The position numbers and the translations under genes were made by a program. Source: a virus (lineage: Duplodnaviria; Heunggongvirae; Uroviricota; Caudoviricetes). From it: 9,637 bases of DNA. Shown in pieces: positions 1 to 9,637 of this stretch. Each line of letters begins with the position of its first letter. Position 1 is the stretch's first letter. A model generated the notes under the pieces. The model saw only the letters and a list, made by a program, of their open reading frames with translations. It did no database searches and was not told where the DNA came from. The stretch lies in the IMG/VR virus record IMGVR_UViG_2529293148_000011; one strand, 5' to 3'.

Positions 1-54
1 CCGTCGCCAGTTGTCGTTGGTATTCTGCAACTGGCGCGTTCCGGAGTGATAGCC

Positions 55-324
55 ATGAGCGAACAGTACCTGATAACGCTCGACGAGTGGAAACCAAAAC
101 GGTTCAGTCTCCCAATAACAAACACTACCCTGGTGAAATACGGAAAACTAGGATACATCGTTCCAAGACCACAAAAAATTCGTGGGCGTTGGCTGATAGA
201 TCGCCGGGCAGTATTTGTTGGACCTGGTGAAACGGGAATTGCGCCGGAAATTCATACTGGCGATGATGATGCACTGAAGGAGATTTTAACTCATGTCACC
301 GAGGCCACGAAAAAACAGCACTGA
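55..324 (+). CDS. xis: Excisionase (Xis-like, lambda/e14 type)
   Basis: ATG at 55 preceded by GGAG at 43-46. N-terminus MSEQYLITLDEW resembles lambda Xis MYLTLQEW. Small basic protein directly upstream of int, overlapping it by 32 nt as in lambda. The frame is open back to the window edge, so a longer upstream start (track uses GTG at 46) cannot be excluded. Confidence 0.75.
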   Translation: MSEQYLITLDEWKPKRFSLPITNTTLVKYGKLGYIVPRPQKIRGRWLIDRRAVFVGPGETGIAPEIHTGDDDALKEILTHVTEATKKQH

Positions 325-1411
325 CGTAACCGGTCTTTACGAAAAGTTTGATCGCAGAACTGGCAGGGTTTACTACCAGTATAAAAACCCTGTGACTGGA
401 AAATTTCACGGTCTCGGAACAGACAAAGGCAAAGCAGAAAAAATCGCTTCCACAGCCAATCAGCGAATAGCTGCAGCAGAAGCTGAATATTTCATGCGCA
501 AAATTGATGAAAGTCCGTCAGCAACAAAACGTCGGGGCATCAGATTAAAGGCATGGGTTGATCGATATCTGAAAATACAGGACGCGCGACTGAAAAATGG
601 AGATATTGCAGCTACAACTCACAAAGAAAAAACTCGAATGGCTGCATACCTGGTTTCCCGTCTGGGAAACCACCCATTGAAAGAACTGGAAGTAAGAGAC
701 TTTGCATTAATACTGGATGAGTGGCTGGATAAAGACATGGTCAGCACAGCGAGAGTAAATCGTGGATTATGGGTTGATATTTATAAAGAAGCACAGCATG
801 CAGGGGAAGTTCCTCCTGGATGGAATCCTCCGGAGGCTACCCGTAAACCGATCCCTAAAGTAACCAGAGCCAGGCTCACCATGGAAGACTGGCAAAAAAT
901 TTACAATGCAACGCCTGAAAAACACTTTATCCGTAACGCAATGCTTCTTGCGATTGTTACTGGTCAGCGCCGTGATGACATTTGCCACATGCGTTTTTCA
1001 GATGTGTGGAACGAACACTTGCATATCACCCAGGGAAAAACCGGAATGCGTCTGGCGTTACCGCTTACACTACGCTGTGATGCCATTGGGATAACGTTAA
1101 AAGAAGTTATTGATGGGTGCCGAGACAGAATATTAAGTCCATATCTAATCCATAGTCGGCACCAGAAACAACCGAAGCCGATGAGTAAAGACAACCTGAG
1201 CGACTACTTTGCCAAAGCACGGGATCTGGCTGGGATAATTCCACCAGCAGGAAAAACTCCGCCAACATTTCATGAACAACGCTCTCTATCAGAACGGCTG
1301 TACCGTGCACAGGGTATCGATACAAAAACATTACTAGGGCATAAAGTCCAGGCAACCACCGATCGCTATAACGATACTCGAGGTCAGGAATGGGTTAAGT
1401 TGGTTATTTGA
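293..1411 (+). CDS. int: Tyrosine site-specific integrase, lambda Int family
   Basis: 372 aa. C-terminus HEQRSLSERLYRAQGIDTKTLLGHKVQATTDRYNDTRGQEWVKLVI parallels the lambda Int catalytic region (H-x-x-R, LLGH, Y) as recalled. AAGGAG lies upstream of the ATG at 293. Resembles e14 IntE from memory. Confidence 0.95.
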   Translation: MSPRPRKNSTDVTGLYEKFDRRTGRVYYQYKNPVTGKFHGLGTDKGKAEKIASTANQRIAAAEAEYFMRKIDESPSATKRRGIRLKAWVDRYLKIQDARLKNGDIAATTHKEKTRMAAYLVSRLGNHPLKELEVRDFALILDEWLDKDMVSTARVNRGLWVDIYKEAQHAGEVPPGWNPPEATRKPIPKVTRARLTMEDWQKIYNATPEKHFIRNAMLLAIVTGQRRDDICHMRFSDVWNEHLHITQGKTGMRLALPLTLRCDAIGITLKEVIDGCRDRILSPYLIHSRHQKQPKPMSKDNLSDYFAKARDLAGIIPPAGKTPPTFHEQRSLSERLYRAQGIDTKTLLGHKVQATTDRYNDTRGQEWVKLVI

Positions 1412-1474
1412 CAAACACCATATGGAATATCCGTCACCATCTCAGGAAAAAAGTGTTGTAAAATGCGTGGCCTA

Positions 1475-1510
1475 GTTTTGGGGAAACGTTTTGGAGAGAT
1501 TTTGGAGAAA
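1475..1510 (+). repeat. Three tandem direct repeats of GTTTTGGRGA (1475-1484, 1488-1497, 1500-1510); candidate integrase arm-type sites
   Basis: Read directly from the sequence, period 12-13 bp, non-coding, about 65 bp downstream of the int stop. Confidence 0.4.
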
Positions 1511-1629
1511 GGAAAAAATTGAATAAATTCAAAATCCTGAAAGTGTCCCGCCTTATGAATAAGAAGGTGAGCGAATTAGATGATTAATCCTTTATATTCA
1601 ATGCATTAAGTTTGTTTTTGAGTGGTTTT

Positions 1630-1647
1630 GCCGTTTAATGTAACGGC
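1630..1647. other. Inverted repeat GCCGTT-TAATGT-AACGGC; candidate att core
   Basis: Perfect 6-bp arms around a 6-bp AT-rich spacer, in an AT-rich region between the two clusters of GTTTTGGAGA motifs. The geometry resembles tyrosine-recombinase core sites. Confidence 0.3.
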
Positions 1648-1683
1648 GTTATAGATCCTATCAAAATCAATCAATTCCGTTCT

Positions 1684-1710
1684 GGTTTTGGAGAAAGATT
1701 TTTCGAGAGC
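1684..1710 (+). repeat. Fourth GTTTTGGAGAAAG motif copy plus a degenerate copy; candidate arm-type site on the other side of the core
   Basis: GGTTTTGGAGAAAG at 1684-1697 is identical to the third unit of the 1475-1510 cluster, in the same orientation. Confidence 0.35.
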
Positions 1711-1752
1711 TTCGGTCTTTAACTAAAACTGATTGCGTATAATCCCAATACC

Positions 1753-1782
1753 CCTCCCCGACTATCTGAATGGTCGGGGAGG
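1753..1782 (-). terminator. GC-rich hairpin (10-bp perfect stem CCTCCCCGAC/GTCGGGGAGG, 10-nt loop) downstream of the tfa remnant
   Basis: Lies 37 nt 3' of the tfa-remnant stop on the - strand. No clean U-tract follows, so it may be a decayed terminator or an RNA processing site. Confidence 0.35.
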
Positions 1783-1818
1783 CACTTCAAGCACAAAATA
1801 TCATCCCTGCGCCGTTGA

Positions 1819-2049
1819 TTACTCTGCAGGTGAAGTCGGCCACTCAATATCAGGTGCAGTTGATGTATCAACACGATTCAACAATACCCGATATTTATTC
1901 CATGCCTCCAGCAACGATCTTTCTTCCTCCTTTGCGATTTCCAGATCTACAGCATCCTGCAGTGGCGCAATATACTCACTGAATTCCTGGGTGTAGAACT
2001 GTGTGGTGACGGTCTTCCAGCCATTCGGCTCCTGCTGTATCGAAGCATA
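1819..2049 (-). pseudogene. tfa: Tail fibre assembly protein (lambda Tfa type), 3' fragment without a start
   Basis: The - strand translates as ...[53 protein letters not shown]-stop, matching the conserved lambda/e14 Tfa C-terminus. The frame is closed by TAG at 2050-2052 with no ATG or GTG, so only about 77 codons remain. Not in the ORF track because it has no start. Confidence 0.7.
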
Positions 2050-2141
2050 CTAGGCTATTTCAATATCGCTATGCTGCGGCAGCATTTAACCCCTTGTAAT
2101 TCATCGCCATAATTGATTTAATTCACAAACAAAACTATAAC

Positions 2142-2810
2142 ATGGTGAAATTAATGAAAAAAAACACAGATGATGGGGCTAAAATTTACACACCACTTAC
2201 CCTAAAGCTTTATGACTGGTGGGTTTTGGGAGTATCAAATCGGCTTGCATGGGGATGTCCTACAAAGGAATACCTTCTTCCACACTTTCTGGAACATTTA
2301 GGTAACAACCATCTGGATATTGGTGTTGGAACTGGGTTTTACCTTACTCACGTACCTGAGAGTAGTCTGATATCTTTAATGGATTTGAACGAAGCTAGCC
2401 TGAACGCGGCATCTACAAGGGCTGGGGAATCAAAAATTAAACATAAAATTAGCCATGATGTTTTTGAACCTTATCCCGCGGCGTTACATGGTCAATTTGA
2501 TTCCATTTCCATGTTTTACCTTCTTCACTGCCTGCCTGGAAATATATCTACAAAAAGCTGTGTAATACGCAATGCGGCGCAGGCCTTAACTGACGATGGA
2601 ACTCTATACGGAGCCACAATTCTTGGCGATGGAGTTGTGCACAATAGCTTCGGTCAAAAACTGATGCGCATTTACAATCAGAAAGGCATCTTTTCAAACA
2701 CAAAAGATTCCGAAGAAGGCTTAACGCATATACTCTCAGAGCATTTCGAGAATGTTAAAACCAAGGTTCAAGGTACTGTAGTAATGTTTTCCGCTTCAGG
2801 GAAAAAATAG
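2142..2810 (+). CDS. Class I SAM-dependent methyltransferase (small-molecule type), likely cargo/moron gene
   Basis: Motif I LDIGVGTG and a post-II-like FDSISMFYLLHCLP. No DPPY/NPPY or PCQ DNA-methyltransferase motifs. The ATG at 2154 has a better SD (GGTGA at 2144-2148) than the ATG at 2142. May correspond to e14 YmfD, but that is an unverified recollection. Confidence 0.8.
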   Translation: MVKLMKKNTDDGAKIYTPLTLKLYDWWVLGVSNRLAWGCPTKEYLLPHFLEHLGNNHLDIGVGTGFYLTHVPESSLISLMDLNEASLNAASTRAGESKIKHKISHDVFEPYPAALHGQFDSISMFYLLHCLPGNISTKSCVIRNAAQALTDDGTLYGATILGDGVVHNSFGQKLMRIYNQKGIFSNTKDSEEGLTHILSEHFENVKTKVQGTVVMFSASGKK

Positions 2811-2817
2811 CATCCAA

Positions 2818-2850
2818 CCGCAGCACGTTCTTGCTTAAGACGTGCTGCGG
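2818..2850 (-). terminator. Hairpin (10-bp stem CCGCAGCACG/CGTGCTGCGG, 13-nt loop) between the convergent methyltransferase gene and the pin/tfa remnant
   Basis: Lies 15 nt 3' of the - strand remnant stop. On the - strand a T-run follows after 10 nt (TTGGATGCTATTTTTT). Confidence 0.4.
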
Positions 2851-2864
2851 CATAATCCCAATGA

Positions 2865-3191
2865 TTACTCCATGACAGGGTTCGTAGGCCACTCAATATC
2901 AGGTGCAGTTGATGTATCAACACGATTCAGCAACACCCGATACTTTTTCCAGGCTTCCACCACCAGCACGACAAGATGCCGCATACAGTGACCCAGTCAG
3001 TCCAGTTTCCAGACAACCAGTGCGTCACCTTTTTGAAGGCGCTTTAAAGCACGTTTTAATCCAGGTCGGCCTGTCCTTGTTCCGCTTTATTTATCTTCAA
3101 ATATTTGTTCACATCCTGCACAAACAAGAGCGTTTCGTTGCAGGTCTGTATTCTGGTCATTTGTTGATACCCTTACATAACCAATCAGCAC
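2865..3191 (-). pseudogene. pin: Serine DNA invertase (Pin/Gin/Hin/Cin family) N-terminal remnant fused to a tfa 3' end; two in-frame stops
   Basis: From GTG at 3191..3189 (SD GGGAGA upstream) the - strand reads VLIGYVRVSTNDQNTDLQRNALVCAGCEQIFEDK[84 protein letters not shown]. The first ~77 codons match the invertase N-terminus including the catalytic-serine region. Stops are TAA at 3089..3087 and TGA at 2999..2997. The last ~31 codons are a Tfa C-terminus. Confidence 0.75.
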
Positions 3192-3245
3192 ACTGAATCT
3201 CCCGTCCAAAAGCGCAAATCATGCCATGCAGGCCGGATACGGCCA

Positions 3246-3271
3246 TTATCTAAAACCTCGGTTTACAGGAA
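3246..3271. other. Din-family invertase crossover site (gix/pix/hix-like): TTATCTAAAACC TC GGTTTACAGGAA
   Basis: Two 12-bp half-sites, TTATCnAAAACC and GGTTTACAGGAA (reverse complement TTCCTGTAAACC), around a 2-bp core; this fits gix as recalled. It sits 55 bp upstream of the pin start and abuts the orphan fibre segment. Confidence 0.6.
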
Positions 3272-3649
3272 ACGGTAAATCAGGCTTCTGGCGCATTACA
3301 GAAAAACCAGAACGGTGCAGATATTCCGGTAAAAGATACCTTCACCAAAAATATTGGTGCCTGCCGCGCATATAGAGCATGGCTGAATATTGGTGGCGAT
3401 AGTCAGATCTGGACAACCGCGCAATTTATTTCGTGGCTGGAGAGTCAGGGGGCATTTAACCATCCTTACTGGATGTGCAAAGGCTCATGGGCTTATGCAA
3501 ATAATAAGGTTATTACAGATACAGGTTGCGGAAATATTTGTCTTGCAGGTGCTGTGGTGGAAGTTATTGGCACTCGCGGCGCAATGACCATACGCGTTAC
3601 TACTCCGAGTACGTCCTGCGGCGTCTGTCGCCCATTTTTCCGAAAATAA
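3254..3649 (+). pseudogene. Orphan variable C-terminal segment of a tail fibre protein (Sv-type, Mu/P1/e14-like), no start codon
   Basis: A 132-codon open frame starts inside the crossover site: NLGLQETVNQASGALQKNQNGADIPVKDTFTKNIGACRAYRAWLNIGGDSQIWTTAQFISWLESQGAFNHPYWMCKGSWAYANNKVITDTGCGNICLAGAVVEVIGTRGAMTIRVTTPSTSCGV... This Gly/Trp/Cys-rich sequence is characteristic of invertible-segment fibre tips as recalled. A TAA at 3251-3253 inside the site closes the frame upstream. Confidence 0.5.
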
Positions 3650-3788
3650 ATGCTCCGACAATACGTGCCACATAACCTGCACCGTAGGTTCCCATTGCCA
3701 GAATTAACGCCATTGCCGTTGATGATTCAGGAAAAAATATTTCATGAAACACTAACGCTGCGCCGAGCGAATATAACTGGAAACCCAT
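3600..3788 (-). pseudogene. N-terminal fragment (TM1-TM2) of an MFS metabolite:H+ symporter-type transporter
   Basis: 62-aa ORF MGFQLYSLGAALVFHEIFFPESSTAMALILAMGTYGAGYVARIVGAFIFGKMGDRRRR... resembles the N-terminus of ShiA/ProP-type MFS proteins (ALVFNREFFP...FGHFGDRLGRKR in ShiA as recalled). An in-frame TGA lies immediately upstream of the Met, and the ORF ends inside the fibre-tip segment, so only about 60 codons of a roughly 430-codon gene remain. Confidence 0.45.
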
Positions 3789-4008
3789 GATTCATAGATA
3801 TTTTTTACCATCCTGTGGATTTCTGGGCGTTTTCTAAGTTTTTTTAAGATGGTTGTATTTTTTCTAAAAACTCCTGAACTCGATTTTGCTGTTTGTCTGA
3901 GGCCTTTTTATGTCCCATATATGCCCCAAGGTGCCCCATGTAAATCCAATTCAACTCAAAGCGTCCATGTTCAATATTTTTACAAGGGGCTGGCATATCA
4001 ATGTTTTT

Positions 4009-4584
4009 TTATTGCGTAACGTCAAACGCTCGGATTGAGCGTAAATCATCAAGATTATTCAGTTCTTCCTTCATCTCCCGCTGACGCTGATAAATCTCGT
4101 TATTGCGATCGACCTGTGCCTGCGCCATTGCTGTCGCCAGTTCTTCCAGTTCCGGCATTGACAGTTTCACCTGTTGATTATCGGCATCACCCCATGCAAG
4201 GGCGGTTAGTGCCGTATCAGATTTCGCCGCCATTACTACCGGATAAAGACGGGCCATTGAGTCGGGGCCAGCGTTCCAGGTGCGACCGTTCCATTCAAAG
4301 GTGAACGGCAGTGCTTCCTGTTCTGTGCGCCATGCCTCGATTTCCTGCTTTTTGGCATCCTTCGCCGCGGCGATAAGTTCCGGCGTGACAGTGAAAGGGG
4401 CGATTTCGCCCCATTTGCCGTTCTGCAACTCTTCCCAGATGCGCTGGCCTGTCGGTGCGGTATCATCCTGCATGGCGGTATACGGGACGAATTCCGTTTC
4501 ACCTTCAAATAACACCTCGCAGTCAACCGCACCATTTTCAAGATAATGGGCGTTTCTGATGCCCTTTACCGCTCTGATTTTCAT
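4009..4584 (-). CDS. tfa: Tail fibre assembly protein / chaperone
   Basis: 191-aa ORF starting 13 nt after the stf stop, with SD GGGGAA. Size and position immediately 3' of the side tail fibre gene match Tfa-type chaperones. The C-terminus lacks the [16 protein letters not shown] motif, so it is a different Tfa subfamily from the two remnants. Confidence 0.7.
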   Translation of the reverse strand: MKIRAVKGIRNAHYLENGAVDCEVLFEGETEFVPYTAMQDDTAPTGQRIWEELQNGKWGEIAPFTVTPELIAAAKDAKKQEIEAWRTEQEALPFTFEWNGRTWNAGPDSMARLYPVVMAAKSDTALTALAWGDADNQQVKLSMPELEELATAMAQAQVDRNNEIYQRQREMKEELNNLDDLRSIRAFDVTQ

Positions 4585-4597
4585 GTTTTATTCCCCG

Positions 4598-6721
4598 TTA
4601 CTCGATGCGCACAAACAGGCAGATACGACCGGTTATTCCTTTAGAGTCCCTGACCCCGGATAGCGCCATATAACGCCCCGGGAAAGTGTACCCTGTAGCT
4701 CCTGCACTCGGTGCGGAATTGTAGGAGCCAACCCCAGGAGAAGATATTAAGCACGAAAGATTAACTCCGCCCAGTTGTGACCCCTGCACCACATCACCCA
4801 GGCCAATATTGATTTCTTTATCCCCGAAAGTTGTTCCGCGATAAACAGCCAGCACTGGAACACCCACTGCCGGGTATTTGAAATATGAGCCTGAGCCCGC
4901 CGTCCTGGACAGCAGGAAGGCCAGCGAATCGCCGTCGTAAATAATGGGGCTTACTGTTGCATTCCAGTTGTTTCCACTAAAGCGGTAAGTCAGGAAATGA
5001 ATACTATGCTCACCTTCGTAATACTGGTTAAAACACAGCAGTGTTTTGAATTTGCGTATTGTGTCCGACTCATCGTTATCAAAGGGCGACCACATCACAT
5101 CAATGATGCCGTTAAATTTCTTGGTGCCTACCAGCAGCATGGAAGAATCCGCAAGACTGACCGCATAACGCCCCGGCGTGGCCACTTTCAGCCATTCAAC
5201 AAAATCGGCCTGCCCGTTAAATGTCAGGGCTTCGGTGCTGGCAAATGCCTGACCGAACCCATGCATACCGGACAGTGCCAGCCTGCCCGGTGCGCGGTCG
5301 CGGATATAGCTCTGGGGTTCCATCGTAGCAGCAGCTTTCAGTCCAAGCTCCGTGCGCATGTCTCCAGGCGTGTTTCGTGACAGTAATAAGCGAGCCTTGT
5401 TGCTGCATGGAATTGCTTTTGCCTCAAAGTTATCACCAAAATAAAGGAGAGAGTTTTGTCCCACCCCTACCTTGCTGATATTGGTTAACGTATTGTTAAG
5501 CGGCTGTTTACCTGCCAGTGCTTTAGTAACCGTTGTCGCAAAGTTCGGGTCATTGCCCAGCGCTGCTGCCAGCTCGTTCAGCGTGTCCAGGGCTTCCGGT
5601 GACGAGTCAACCAGCGCAGCAAGCAGTTTGCGAACAAATGCCGCGTTCGCTGTTTCCAGACCGGCAGCATCGTCCGGTGGGGTTGGTGTGGTGGGTGTGC
5701 CGGTGAATGCCGGGCTGTCCAGCGGCGCTTTTGTTTTCGTCTCGTCCATGACGGTTTTGACGGCTTTTGGTGTGGCTGCCAGTTCCTCGCTGTCGTTGTC
5801 TGTATCACTACAGAGTTGCACCAGGCCTTTTTCTGTTGTGGAAGCATTGCTTCCCTTCAGGTCATCAACAATCCGTTGCGCCTCGTCCCTGTGCTGTTTC
5901 GCTTCCTGCGCATTGCCTGCGCTCGCATCCTGGCTGGCCTTCGCCTGCCGGGCGTATTCGGCAGCGTTATTTTCATGGCCCAGCGCAACATTTGCCGCAT
6001 TTTCTGCACTGGTCGCAGCCAAAGATGCTGCTTCCTTATACTGACTGGCGCGTCCGGCTGCATCAACCGATTCATTCCGCGCTGCCCCTGATGCCTGAGC
6101 ACTGTTTTCTGCCTCATTCGCAAAACGCTCTGCGTCATCACGGGCCGTTTCGGTTGCTGTCACATCCTGTGCAGTCTGTTGTGCGCTTCCGGCTGCATTA
6201 TCAGCGTGACTTTTTGCGTTCTGCTCGCTTTTTGCAGCCGCTTCGGCGCTCTGCTGTGCCTGATTTTTCAGCTCTTCTGCCTTATTTTTACTGTCAAGAG
6301 CAGAGGTCGCTGCGTTTGTTGCTGTATCCGCTGCCGACTCTGCTCTTTTACGGTCATCAGTGACCTGCTCTGACTGCCGGGTAACTGCATCCACCATTTC
6401 CTCAAAACGCTTCATCACCTCCGGACGTAAATCACCATCCTTTGGTGCATCCAGAAACGCGTTCAGTGTCCCAGGTGTGTCAGTCGGTGCCACATAAATA
6501 TCCCCGACACGGGTTGGCTGCCAGCCGTTACGGTTAAGCGCAACCTCGTAATACCCCGGCTCAGCCTCAATCACATAAGCACCGTTATTGTCCGTCACAC
6601 AAGTGGCGACAACGTGTGCCACAACGGTCGGACTGGTTCTTCTGGCCCGCAGTTCAATCGCACAATTTACGACAGGCTTACCCGCCCCGTCTTTCAGCAC
6701 ACCTGAAATCTTTACTGCCAT
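4598..6721 (-). CDS. stf: Side tail fibre protein (lambda Stf-like)
   Basis: N-terminus MAVKISGVLKDGAGKPV matches lambda Stf. A long Ala/Ser/Gln/Glu-rich shaft is followed by LAATPKAVKTVMDETKTKAPLDSPAFTGTP...LNELAAALGNDPNFATTVTKALAGKQP, a conserved Stf region. The likely start is ATG 6721..6719 (GGGG SD); the track's GTG at 6727 is two codons upstream. Confidence 0.9.
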   Translation of the reverse strand: MAVKISGVLKDGAGKPVVNCAIELRARRTSPTVVAHVVATCVTDNNGAYVIEAEPGYYEVALNRNGWQPTRVGDIYVAPTDTPGTLNAFLDAPKDGDLRPEVMKRFEEMVDAVTRQSEQVTDDRKRAESAADTATNAATSALDSKNKAEELKNQAQQSAEAAAKSEQNAKSHADNAAGSAQQTAQDVTATETARDDAERFANEAENSAQASGAARNESVDAAGRASQYKEAASLAATSAENAANVALGHENNAAEYARQAKASQDASAGNAQEAKQHRDEAQRIVDDLKGSNASTTEKGLVQLCSDTDNDSEELAATPKAVKTVMDETKTKAPLDSPAFTGTPTTPTPPDDAAGLETANAAFVRKLLAALVDSSPEALDTLNELAAALGNDPNFATTVTKALAGKQPLNNTLTNISKVGVGQNSLLYFGDNFEAKAIPCSNKARLLLSRNTPGDMRTELGLKAAATMEPQSYIRDRAPGRLALSGMHGFGQAFASTEALTFNGQADFVEWLKVATPGRYAVSLADSSMLLVGTKKFNGIIDVMWSPFDNDESDTIRKFKTLLCFNQYYEGEHSIHFLTYRFSGNNWNATVSPIIYDGDSLAFLLSRTAGSGSYFKYPAVGVPVLAVYRGTTFGDKEINIGLGDVVQGSQLGGVNLSCLISSPGVGSYNSAPSAGATGYTFPGRYMALSGVRDSKGITGRICLFVRIE

Positions 6722-6732
6722 ATTCACCCCAC

Positions 6733-6758
6733 AAAAAAGCCCGCCTGAACCGGCGGGC
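6733..6758 (-). terminator. Rho-independent terminator downstream of lom
   Basis: On the - strand: GCCCGCC-GGTTCA-GGCGGGC followed by TTTTTT, between the lom stop (6786) and the stf start (6721). Confidence 0.65.
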
Positions 6759-6785
6759 TGTCATAACACTGTGTTACCTGGCTAA

Positions 6786-7397
6786 TCAGAACTTATAACC
6801 GACACCCACGATGAAACCGTCAGTGCGCCAGTCACCACTGCCGGAGCCTTCATAAGCAAGGTCAATAGTCACCGTTTCTGCCGGGCTGAACTGAAGACCC
6901 GCACCCCATGCCAGCGACAGGTGTCGTGCGGTATAGCCATCACTGGCGGTGGTCGTCTCCTTCACATACCCCGGTTTCAATTCATCACGTCGGTAATCCT
7001 GAACACTGTCAGACCAGCGGGTGTAAGCCATCCCAGCCGTGCCATAGAGACTGACCTGCTCACTGACCTGCCAGACAGGGCCGGCCATCAGACTCACATA
7101 ACGACCGCGCAGGCTTTCATAATGGAGCGTATTTTCACCCGTCTTCATCGTGTCGCTTTTTTTCGCCGACGCATAACTCAGCGAAACAATACCACCCGCA
7201 TGGTCCGTGAATTCATAACGGTATTTCACGTTAATCCCTTTTAAATCACCTGTACGGGCACCGGTACCGGACAATGCCGGCACGCCGCCCGGGTGAACCT
7301 GAGCATATCCCACGGAAAACGCACCGTGTCCGACTTCAGCCTGCGCAGGAAGGGCCATTCCTGCCAGAAAAGCGACAAAAAATAAAATATGGCGCAT
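6786..7397 (-). CDS. lom: Lom-like outer membrane protein (Ail/Lom/PagC family)
   Basis: 203 aa with a signal peptide (MRHILFFVAFLAGMALPAQA). The body and C-terminus (LAYEGSGSGDWRTDGFIVGVGYKF) closely match lambda Lom as recalled. SD GAGAGG precedes the ATG. Confidence 0.9.
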   Translation of the reverse strand: MRHILFFVAFLAGMALPAQAEVGHGAFSVGYAQVHPGGVPALSGTGARTGDLKGINVKYRYEFTDHAGGIVSLSYASAKKSDTMKTGENTLHYESLRGRYVSLMAGPVWQVSEQVSLYGTAGMAYTRWSDSVQDYRRDELKPGYVKETTTASDGYTARHLSLAWGAGLQFSPAETVTIDLAYEGSGSGDWRTDGFIVGVGYKF

Positions 7398-7421
7398 GAT
7401 TACCTCTCGTTTTCAGTCAAT

Positions 7422-7445
7422 AAAAAAGGCACCGCTTCGGGTGCC
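7422..7445 (-). terminator. Rho-independent terminator between J and lom
   Basis: On the - strand: GGCACC-CGAAGC-GGTGCC stem-loop followed by TTTTTT, 20 nt 3' of the J stop. Confidence 0.55.
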
Positions 7446-7464
7446 CCTCCGGGTTAATAAATCG

Positions 7465-9637
7465 TCAGCTGATACTGATTCCTGCCGTGGATTTTTTCAT
7501 GACCACCACCAGTAAATCGCTGATGTACGTTGTCGGCGTCCATTTGTTCGCGCCGGTCGACGACACATTAAACGTCAGGGTGACATGACCCCGTCCTGCC
7601 GGCATATCTATCACCGATGAGAACACCCGGCTGACATCCGTTGCCGGTTCATGGAAAATCTCAGCCCCGTTTTTAAACACCTGCAGCTTGCAGGTGGAAT
7701 ACCAGTATGACTGTTGGTTATGACTGTTGAAATTCTGGTGTTTCGTACCACGAAATAATACCGGCGGAATGATAATCTGCCGGTCGAATCCCTGATCATC
7801 ATAAACCGTGACGGTTATAGTGCCACTGGCATAACTTCCATTTCGCGGGAAAGCCTTACCCACCGTTTTGACAATATCGCCTTCAATCTGGCTGGCTGAC
7901 AGTTTTCCAAGGATCCGGCAGTTCTGATTAATCGTGACGTTGTTGAGCGTCCCGGAATTCGCATTCACGTTACCGCTGATATCAGCATTTCTCGCCGTCA
8001 GCCGCCCGTCCGGTGTCATGGAGAATGCCGGAGGATTACCGGATGACGTGATGCTCACCGCAAATAGTCGCTTCAGGAACACGTCGTTCATGAACAGCTG
8101 ATTCCCCTGCGCCACAAACAGCGGCGTGGTGTTACCGTTCTCCGGGGTAATCATCGCAATGCGATCGGCCTGCAGCAGAATGTTACTCAGGGTCTGACCA
8201 TCAACATCCTCAATCCCTGCACCAATACCGGCCACATAGGGAATACCGTTTTTTGTTTTCTGCACCTTCAGCATATACATGGCATTCAGCTCATTGCGCG
8301 TGTCTGACTGAACCCGCTGGATTTGCTGTATGGTCACGGCCTGGTCACCCAGCTTTTTATCCGTGGTCGAGGTAATTTCACTCCCTTTTTTATCCACGTA
8401 CTGGCGGACCTGTGCTATCTGTCGGGCGTTTTCTGACTGCCCCTGGCTGACAGTCTGTGAGATTTCACTGCTCACCCGGTCCACTTTCTGGTTCACCTGC
8501 GCGATGGCCAGTGCCTGGTCCTCATTCTTTTTCGCAACCAGCTGCGTGAGAGTGTTTTCCGCCTTCCCGATTTTCCGGGTCACTTCTGCGATATCCGTGT
8601 CCATCCGCTGACGGATGTCTTCTTCCAGTTGCGTGACCTCCGTACGCAGCGCTGAAGCATCAATGCGCTCTTTCAGTGCCTGACCAAGAAGCGTCTCATC
8701 TATCAGCCCCCGGAAAATTTCCAGATACCCTTCACCATCATTGCTGGGCTGCCCGCTGGCTTCCACAAAAGCAGATTTTCCCACCAGGTTGACGCTTCGC
8801 ACGTAAAACCAGAAATCCGTCCCCGGCTTAATCCGGCTCCCCTGGACAGTCCACTGACTGCCGGCCCCCAGATAACGGGCAGATTTTTCCACCTGTGCTG
8901 TGTTCGTGATGCGTTTTTCTGAGAACCAGAATTCAAACTGTACCGTCGGGTCATACACCGCAAGACGCGGGACCGCCGTTATCTGAAAATACCCCGGCGT
9001 CAGCTCAATGGTGGCGGGTTTTGCAGGTGCGTTAATCCGGAAGGTGGTGGTGGCAGGATCGCCCTGCTGTCCCCACGCATTTACCGCCCGGACTGTCAGC
9101 CTGTAGTTCCCCAGCGCCAGTTGTGTGAAGCGGTAAGTGGTTTCCGTCGTCCGGGCCGTGCTGACCAGCCGCTCACTGCCGTCATCCGCTGTTACAGTCA
9201 GGCGAAGCAGGAAGCTCACGCCCTTCACCACCTTCGGCGTGTCCCAGCGGGCCAGTACCTGATACTCCCCGCTGTCTGCAGTGACTTCGGCAGTCAGGTG
9301 CTGCACCGCTGGCGGCGTGACACCATTCACCGTGCCGCTCTGGTCGCCGTCAAAGTGCGCCCCGTTATCCACGATGGCTTCTTTTTCCGGTACATGCTGC
9401 ACGGCAGTGATGGCATGCGTGCCGTCATCGTTCTCACGAATACTCACACAGCGGAACAGGCGCTGGCGCAACGTCGGCAGCTTCAGCCCCCATACGCTGT
9501 ATTCAGCAACACCGTCAGGAACACGGCTCACTTTTACCTTCACGCCGTCGGTGACGGACTGAACCTCCACGCTGACCGGATTGCCACTTCCGTCAACCAG
9601 GCTTATCAGCGTGGTACCGGAGGATGGCAGCGTGATT
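7465..9637 (-). CDS. J: Host specificity / central tail fibre protein J (C-terminal ~720 codons; 5' end lies beyond the window)
   Basis: The frame is open from the window edge (9637) to the stop at 7465. A long beta-rich protein immediately upstream of lom-stf-tfa, as in lambda. The C-terminus ...[14 protein letters not shown] is in the receptor-binding region. Confidence 0.9.

Follow-up and report, generated by a model that had tools for sequence, protein, structure and literature searches.

How does part of a host transporter gene come to lie inside the tail region of a phage? The question is raised by a 9,637-nt stretch of caudoviral DNA (IMG/VR record IMGVR_UViG_2529293148_000011; 'the window' below), in which a 62-codon open reading frame at 3600-3788 on the minus strand is wedged between a tail-fibre tip and a tail module. 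A first interpretation, made from the letters alone and referred to here as the sequence-only reading, had likened the translation to TM1-TM2 of ShiA/ProP-type MFS symporters, and had proposed either a captured scrap of host DNA or the footprint of an integration site. The features on which our analysis draws are collected in Table 1.

Table 1. Coordinates of annotated and newly assigned features in the window
Feature	Position	Strand	Basis or remark
Excisionase	46..324	+	So annotated in colinear prophages; overlaps start of int
Lambda-type tyrosine integrase, 372 aa	293..1411	+	Pfam Arm-DNA-bind_1 (4e-21), Phage_integrase (1.6e-18)
att core of the potB/potC site, 14 bp	1556..1569		TGAATAAGAAGGTG; attP arrangement, int arm left, b-region arm right
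Class I SAM-dependent methyltransferase, b-region cargo	2142..2810	+	Pfam Methyltransf_12/23/25
Truncated Pin/Gin-type serine invertase remnant	3087..3209	-	Pfam Resolvase N-terminal (1.4e-6)
Alternative (inverted) Mu S'/P1 Sv-type fibre-tip fragment	3257..3623	+	Colinear with TW10573; cut by the joint
Novel joint, fibre-tip DNA / ydfJ codon 83	3623..3624		Three-way alignment of window, TW10573 and E423 ydfJ locus; BLAST boundaries
ydfJ fragment	3624..3788	-	Part of TM1, TM2, first half of MFS motif A (G-D-R)
Qin-type (ydfJ-site) att core	3780..3790		GAAACCCATGA, 9/11 matching canonical GAAATCCATAA
Phage arm typical of ydfJ-site prophages	3791..4008		Colinear with three ydfJ loci
DinI-like pseudogene piece	~3852-3938	+	Annotation in ydfJ-locus matches
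Tail fibre assembly protein, DUF4376, 191 aa	4009..4584	-	Pfam DUF4376 (2.1e-17)
Side tail fibre, 709 aa	4598..6727	-	Pfam phage_tail_N, Phage_fiber_2
Lom outer membrane protein	6786..7397	-	Pfam Ail_Lom (2.6e-49)
Tail tip protein J, C-terminal part	7465..9637	-	Pfam Ig_J, Phage_Tail_Tip, Ig_GpJ_C

The ydfJ fragment and its two ends

The intact counterpart of the reading frame is ydfJ, for which the unoccupied gene of strain GF4-3 (455 aa) served as our reference. Positions 3624-3788 on the minus strand correspond to ydfJ codons 29-83, with 162 of 165 nt identical (98.2%, E = 6e-80), and the first 55 codons of the frame agree with YdfJ residues 29-83 at 54 of 55 amino acids, the single change being D30G. 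BLASTP against the GF4-3 protein gave 55/58 identities (E = 2e-35). When 3400-4000 was compared with 5,426 complete E. coli genomes, every match started at 3624 and was annotated as ydfJ, often with a fragment of a DinI-like family protein next to it. The intact protein is named MHS family MFS transporter YdfJ by PGAP and matches Pfam MFS_1 (2.2e-37, approximately residues 21-344) as well as Sugar_tr. ShiA and ProP are themselves members of the MHS family, and the sequence-only comparison with them was accurate, the frame covering TM2 and part of TM1 of ydfJ together with the first half of the motif G-x-x-x-D-R-x-G-R-R. Searched alone, the 62-aa product had no match in Pfam because the fragment is too short, and its identity was therefore decided by the DNA and BLASTP comparisons. 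A complete transporter has 12 helices and 455 aa, of which the window retains residues 29-83 only. Residues 1-28 are absent because the fragment begins at a Qin-type att core, and everything past Arg83 is absent because of a novel joint, so that the truncation at both ends that had been proposed is accounted for on either side. By these comparisons, 3624-3788 is a gene fragment and no transporter.

To describe the right end, the canonical 11-bp core GAAATCCATAA was defined from the K-12 attL and attR together with the GF4-3 attB. In K-12 both parts of ydfJ, the large b1543 and the small N-terminal ynfP, contain this core, which is located at Met29; the Qin feature (1632277-1652745) abuts b1543, after which come ydfK, pinQ, tfaQ and stfQ. 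Where the intact gene reads ...AACTG GAAATCCATAA ATTCAAGCG..., the window reads ...AACTG GAAACCCATGA TTCATAGAT..., giving the order ydfJ body, core with two substitutions, phage arm. The substitutions lie at 3784 (T to C, producing D30G) and 3789 (A to G), and both are found in 20 of 20 copies of the scrap (the window and 19 further loci). One native ydfJ-locus junction among the examined loci carries the A to G change alone, suggesting that part of the core variant may predate the capture.

Beyond the core, the phage arm is colinear with the ydfJ-locus prophage of E423 up to 4398 (93.8%), with the ydfJ locus of UTAK-3 up to 4128 (95.2%) and with K-12 Qin up to 3929 (89.6%). The E423-colinear stretch takes in the 3' two-thirds of the DUF4376 tail-fibre-assembly gene. 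With nine of 11 core positions matching, a host side at 98% and a phage side colinear with ydfJ-locus prophages, the right end of the fragment (~3790) is a genuine ydfJ/prophage att junction, and the right half of the arrangement belongs to the Qin/ydfJ class of att junctions. Its likeness to K-12 Qin and other ydfJ prophages, Stx2a phages included, extends to the host gene, the core region GAAATCCATAA at Met29, the arm beside the large ydfJ piece and the presence of tail-fibre genes at that prophage end. Unlike in those prophages, the junction travels inside a potB/potC phage rather than occupying the chromosomal ydfJ, retains only 55 ydfJ codons and has a core with two substitutions.

At the left end, fibre-tip homology stops at 3623 and ydfJ homology begins at 3624. 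The joint is blunt in the three-way alignment, with 0 shared bases, fibre sequence ending in ...GCGGCG being followed directly by ydfJ sequence TCTGTCGCCC..., while in a normal chromosome this side of ydfJ runs on into the remaining ydfJ and then ydfI. We therefore place exactly, at 3623/3624, the sharp junction that had been estimated near 3617-3630. Both reading frames continue across it: the last seven codons of the minus-strand ORF (3600-3623) and the last nine codons of the plus-strand fibre-tip frame (3624-3649, with a stop at 3649) are read-through, and these two tails make up the overlap between the ORF and the 3' end of the fibre-tip frame that the sequence-only reading had noticed. 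The left end is an illegitimate joint inside ydfJ, and not an att junction.

The carrier phage and its integration site

The gene order in the window is xis, int, attP, b-region, tfa, stf, lom and J. An identical integrase protein lies directly upstream of potC in 10 of the 10 contexts listed, and 1,610 complete genomes have the integrase, together with the sequence up to 1569, in this position. Homology of the attR type covers 1-1569, homology of the attL type (potB side) starts from 1556, and in a four-way comparison the core TGAATAAGAAGGTG is common to the window, the K-12 attB, the TW10573 attL and the attR of strain 700481. The phage arm at 1570-1587 supplies potB with a replacement 18-bp 3' end. 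As the shared core is flanked by an int arm and a b-region arm, the window carries attP. The lambda-type integrase, the core in all four contexts and the position of int beside potC are those of a lambda-like phage with its integration site between potB and potC. Thus the window is not the ydfJ locus, and the phage uses potB/potC as its site.

These results bear on the proposals of the sequence-only reading. Its statement that Qin interrupts ydfJ in K-12, with pin-tfa-stf adjacent, is correct by the K-12 annotation; prophages are found at ydfJ in E423 and UTAK-3 as well, and the att core maps to 3780-3790 of the window. The pin and fibre-tip remnants to the left of the fragment are not Qin's; they belong to the b-region of potB-site prophages, for example that of ETEC TW10573. 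As for captured scrap or integration-site footprint, both descriptions hold, except that the footprint is that of a site which this phage does not use.

Every chromosomal context that we retrieved has the order potB-core-b-region or int-core-potC. Compared with these, the attP order of the window would correspond either to a lambda-like genome in excised or circular form, or to the join between tandem prophages. An 87-nt pattern spanning attP was absent from IMG/VR. Tandem prophages at potB do exist, as in the complete genome of O26 strain 97-3250 (locus L008), where window 1-1965 is found in one unbroken stretch (9001-10966) at 97.6% identity, and where a potB-type integrase and core are followed by the end of another prophage with the type III secretion effector genes espM2, espW and nleG. 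That prophage end also contains a YkgJ-family fragment, another scrap derived from the chromosome.

The region between the potB/potC core and the joint (1556-3623) is colinear, at 97.5%, with the end of the potB-integrated prophage of ETEC TW10573. Its last part, 2997-3623, is a dead inversion switch of the Pin/Gin type. Only the N-terminal 40 codons of the invertase are open in the window (relatives are annotated with a 64-65-aa 'recombinase family protein'), and only 122 codons are left of the inverted alternative fibre tip, whose last 124 bases (3500-3623) are 96.7-98.4% identical to Mu S', P7 Sv and JL22 S. The region resembles the Pin/Gin/Cin switches (Mu G, P1/P7 C, e14/Qin pin) in having a pin remnant, a crossover-site-like sequence and an inverted tip, the latter 97-98% identical to Mu S' and P7 Sv, and differs from them in being dead, with the invertase cut to 40-64 codons and the tip cut at the joint. 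The crossover-site-like sequence, TTATCTAAAACCTCGGTTTACAGGAAAC, is found at ~3245-3272.

Several further observations concern the genes on either side. The methyltransferase gene is bracketed by 79-nt direct repeats (1835-1913 and 2884-2962, 90% identical), both of which are 3' fragments of tail-fibre-assembly genes; it has the look of a cassette that either entered the end of a tfa gene or was duplicated along with it. The length of the side tail fibre in Table 1 is counted from the first start codon in the window, gene calls in relatives being 707 or 662 aa. The J frame has no stop up to 9636 and is open to the end of the window, and the full gene encodes 1233 aa in locus L006 and relatives.

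Occurrence and origin of the fragment

An identical 42-nt junction was found in two IMG/VR contigs and in 19 loci from independent NCBI draft assemblies (that is, at least 19), one of the IMG/VR contigs being 99.99% identical to window 1575-9637. The junction was not found in the complete RefSeq E. coli genomes (5,426 searched), and it was absent from the GTDB species representatives. Many draft assemblies contain the chimeric 62-aa ORF in exactly this form, and it lies inside a potB prophage in 10 of the 10 contexts listed, where the order is tail genes, J, lom, stf, tfa, 62-aa ORF, pin remnant, methyltransferase, potB, potA and pepT. All 19 of the other junction loci adjoin potB. In one assembly (GCA_045077245.1), a single contig, DBBYAO010000001.1, holds both ends of the element: the potB side (L047) matches window 1556-7810 at 100% identity, and the potC side (L026) matches window 1-1569 at 99.94%. 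Between them lies one prophage of ~46.8 kb, from potB to potC, at record positions 258,540-305,325. Being a single element of phage size, it leaves no room for a second phage nested at the scrap, nor for a chromosomal inversion by which potB and the ydfJ locus would now be linked. A present-day inversion between a potB and a ydfJ prophage was also rejected as a candidate because the far end of the prophage is a potB-type integrase beside potC.

Host flanks of the junction loci are E. coli sequence, 98.5-99.98% identical to K-12, and differ from those of a reference locus (L015) by up to 115 of 7861 nt (up to 1.5%). By comparison, the 3150 bp of b-region and scrap differ from L015 by 0-6 nt (at most 0.2%) in eight of nine comparisons, the remaining one giving 32 nt, and the breakpoint and the two-substitution core are the same in all copies. 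The near invariance of the scrap region against diverged host flanks suggests one capture followed by horizontal spread as the simplest reading, and a single capture event is what we infer. Indirectly, it would also fit a scrap that is packaged and passed on in virions.

Differences of another kind are seen in the tail region, which varies by 1-3% between scrap-bearing prophages (L014-L023) when the b-region varies by no more than 0.2% in all of them except one, a pattern which indicates that the tail genes kept recombining after the capture. In one of these prophages (L022, GCA_012252785.1, 7975-9205), the whole stretch that elsewhere separates the gene for the major tail protein from the DUF4376 tfa gene is gone, namely G/T, the tape measure gene, M, L, K, I, J, lom and stf, and we take it to be a grounded derivative of a scrap-bearing prophage.

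The reading that we favour, at a probability of about 0.82, is that the scrap is a fossil without function, left by illegitimate recombination with a ydfJ-site prophage. Over at least 775 bp (3624-4398) the arrangement is one found only at ydfJ::prophage junctions, and this block is joined, with no homology, to the region of a decayed Pin switch in a potB-type phage. In the proposed course of events, a lambda-like phage of the potB/potC site would have swapped the outer end of its tail-fibre region for DNA of a prophage integrated at the ydfJ (Qin) site. On the left, the crossover would have been illegitimate and have fallen 165 bp outside the donor prophage, within ydfJ, which is how ydfJ codons 29-83, a hybrid att, the phage arm and at least part of the tfa gene could be picked up together. 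Its partner would have been a part of the recipient's own Pin inversion switch, namely the decayed alternative fibre tip, and the right crossover was probably homologous, somewhere in the tail genes.

Two routes could lead to this product. By the first, aberrant excision of a ydfJ prophage, of the kind that gives lambda bio phages, may have been followed by recombination with a potB-type phage. By the second, two successive inversions may have taken place between potB and ydfJ prophages lying in opposite orientation. Both genes are on the minus strand in K-12, whereas in the window potB reads on the plus and ydfJ on the minus strand; the two prophages are thus oppositely oriented, which makes the inversion route plausible. 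Inversions between prophages involving the ydfJ locus have been documented (PMC8112680). A donor with the same tail fibre at ydfJ was not seen: none of the 5,426 complete E. coli genomes covers at least 80% of 3624-6800, and the best matches of the fibre gene in complete E. coli genomes are only 80-89% identical, so that colinearity with a ydfJ locus reaches only to 4398.

Exchange between the two sites has a second example. In locus L044 (GCA_037401115.1, 4415-10669), the same potB b-region (window 1556-2940, 99.4%) adjoins a tail-fibre module of the baseplate (Mu/P2-like) type, 99.1% identical to the module at the ydfJ locus of UTAK-3 (L002, 5418-9731). The breakpoint is a different one and neither ydfJ nor other host DNA is included, making this an independent second exchange, and one that shows exchange between potB-site and ydfJ-site prophages to recur. 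Both potB and ydfJ are known prophage loci with frequent replacement of segments (PMC9997748).

Two known systems invite comparison with the whole arrangement. Specialised transducing phages of the lambda bio type are products of aberrant prophage excision. Here as there, host DNA at the tail/b-region end is contiguous with phage DNA through a hybrid att and ends in a novel joint without homology. Unlike in lambda bio, the partner at the joint is the b-region of a different, potB-site type of phage rather than that prophage's own early region; the host piece, at only 165 bp, has no usable coding content; and the lineage keeps a complete attP and an integrase for another site. By this analogy, the architecture may be described as that of a lambda-bio-type transducing phage without a useful gene to transduce.

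The other comparison is with the chromosome-derived, att-bearing scraps of E. coli prophages, described from yecE, ykgJ/ecpE and ompW (Nakamura et al. 2021, PMC8112680), among which no scrap derived from ydfJ is described. They too are short host att loci, located close to the ends of lambda-like prophages and passed from one prophage to another. In those scraps the attB is still usable and has been seen occupied by other phages, whereas the scrap described here is a hybrid of the attL type and is unoccupied. Of the two bacterial arms that define an attB within a prophage, the N-terminal side of ydfJ (ATTCAAGCGCAG...) is absent, the phage arm standing in its place; and instead of a phage integrated at the site there is the single 46.8-kb prophage between potB and potC. 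The scrap resembles this class without sharing its defining properties.

Alternative readings and significance

We infer that the scrap is inert and non-functional. It encodes 12% of a transporter, and its core, a hybrid attL-type site with two substitutions, is without a partner site in the phage. The 62-aa ORF does keep its ATG and is intact and identical in every copy. As the whole region is too young, however, this conservation is not evidence of selection, and it is matched by that of neighbouring non-coding DNA. When 3200-4100 was scanned for promoters and terminators, no more was found than shuffled sequence would give (one promoter-like site against 1.9 expected), and the lone predicted 'terminator' spans the joint itself.

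There is a slim chance that the captured block at 3624-4398 is more than cargo, acting as portable homology to the ydfJ::prophage junctions of many E. coli genomes, or as a hybrid att recognised by ydfJ-type integrases. The block combines 165 bp of ydfJ with ~600 bp of ydfJ-site phage arm, and in a potB lysogen the scrap copy would be inverted and ~447 kb from the resident copy, judging from K-12 gene orientations. Such an inverted copy of ydfJ-junction homology could drive RecA-dependent inversions across the replication terminus, or repeated swaps of tail-fibre modules between potB-site and ydfJ-site prophages.

Somewhat less probable again is that the frame is expressed as a small membrane protein of 62 aa, a moron that might for instance interfere with the host YdfJ or with superinfection. 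An identical frame in all copies would agree with this, as would the Met29 start, which with the same upstream phage arm is annotated as the ydfJ start in K-12, and a weak promoter-like site upstream (4001-3973). However, the surrounding 3 kb are equally invariant, pointing to youth and not to selection, and promoter-like sites are no commoner than in shuffled sequence. The product itself would consist of half of TM1 plus TM2 of an MFS transporter, with seven C-terminal residues that are antisense fibre sequence made by the joint, and the fragment alone is without a Pfam match.

The remaining explanations concern the origin of the fragment. The potB phage could have carried a full ydfJ attB into which a ydfJ-targeting phage integrated, the tail module then being that of the nested phage. 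The genuine att junction of the scrap would fit such an arrangement, and published attB sites inside prophages are used in this way (PMC8112680). We nevertheless hold it to be very improbable, as the ~46.8-kb span from potB to potC in GCA_045077245.1 has the size of a single phage genome rather than two, the far end carries an integrase of the potB/potC type, and no copy with the site unoccupied was present in complete E. coli genomes, IMG/VR or the GTDB representatives. Still harder to credit is an in-situ footprint, with the window taken from the chromosomal ydfJ locus of a lysogen in which a later deletion removed the rest of ydfJ. Its right junction, core and arm, is exactly as at ydfJ loci, but to the left of the joint lie the b-region, attP core and integrase of a potB/potC phage in place of ydfJ and ydfI, 19 of the 19 other junction loci are beside potB, and the whole element is a single 46.8-kb prophage running from potB to potC. 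Finally, a chance ORF, the outcome that the sequence-only reading had named against itself together with a lack of MFS similarity, or else an assembly chimera, might be suspected from the short length and the lack of a Pfam match, but has a negligible probability with 54 of 55 residues those of YdfJ, 98.2% identity to ydfJ over 165 bp (E = 6e-80) and the identical junction in two IMG/VR contigs and 19 loci from independent assemblies.

The favoured reading, a fossil of illegitimate recombination, is an event of a known kind and reveals no new mechanism. For annotators, it means that a ydfJ match at this position marks neither a transporter gene nor the integration site of this phage, and the 42-nt junction can be used as a lineage marker for the phage. 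On this reading, a tail-fibre end would have moved from a ydfJ-site prophage to a potB/potC phage with a breakpoint that is precise to the base, and the product would have spread among divergent E. coli, so that the scrap may serve to trace cleanly, and to date, the flow of genes between prophages that occupy two different chromosomal sites.
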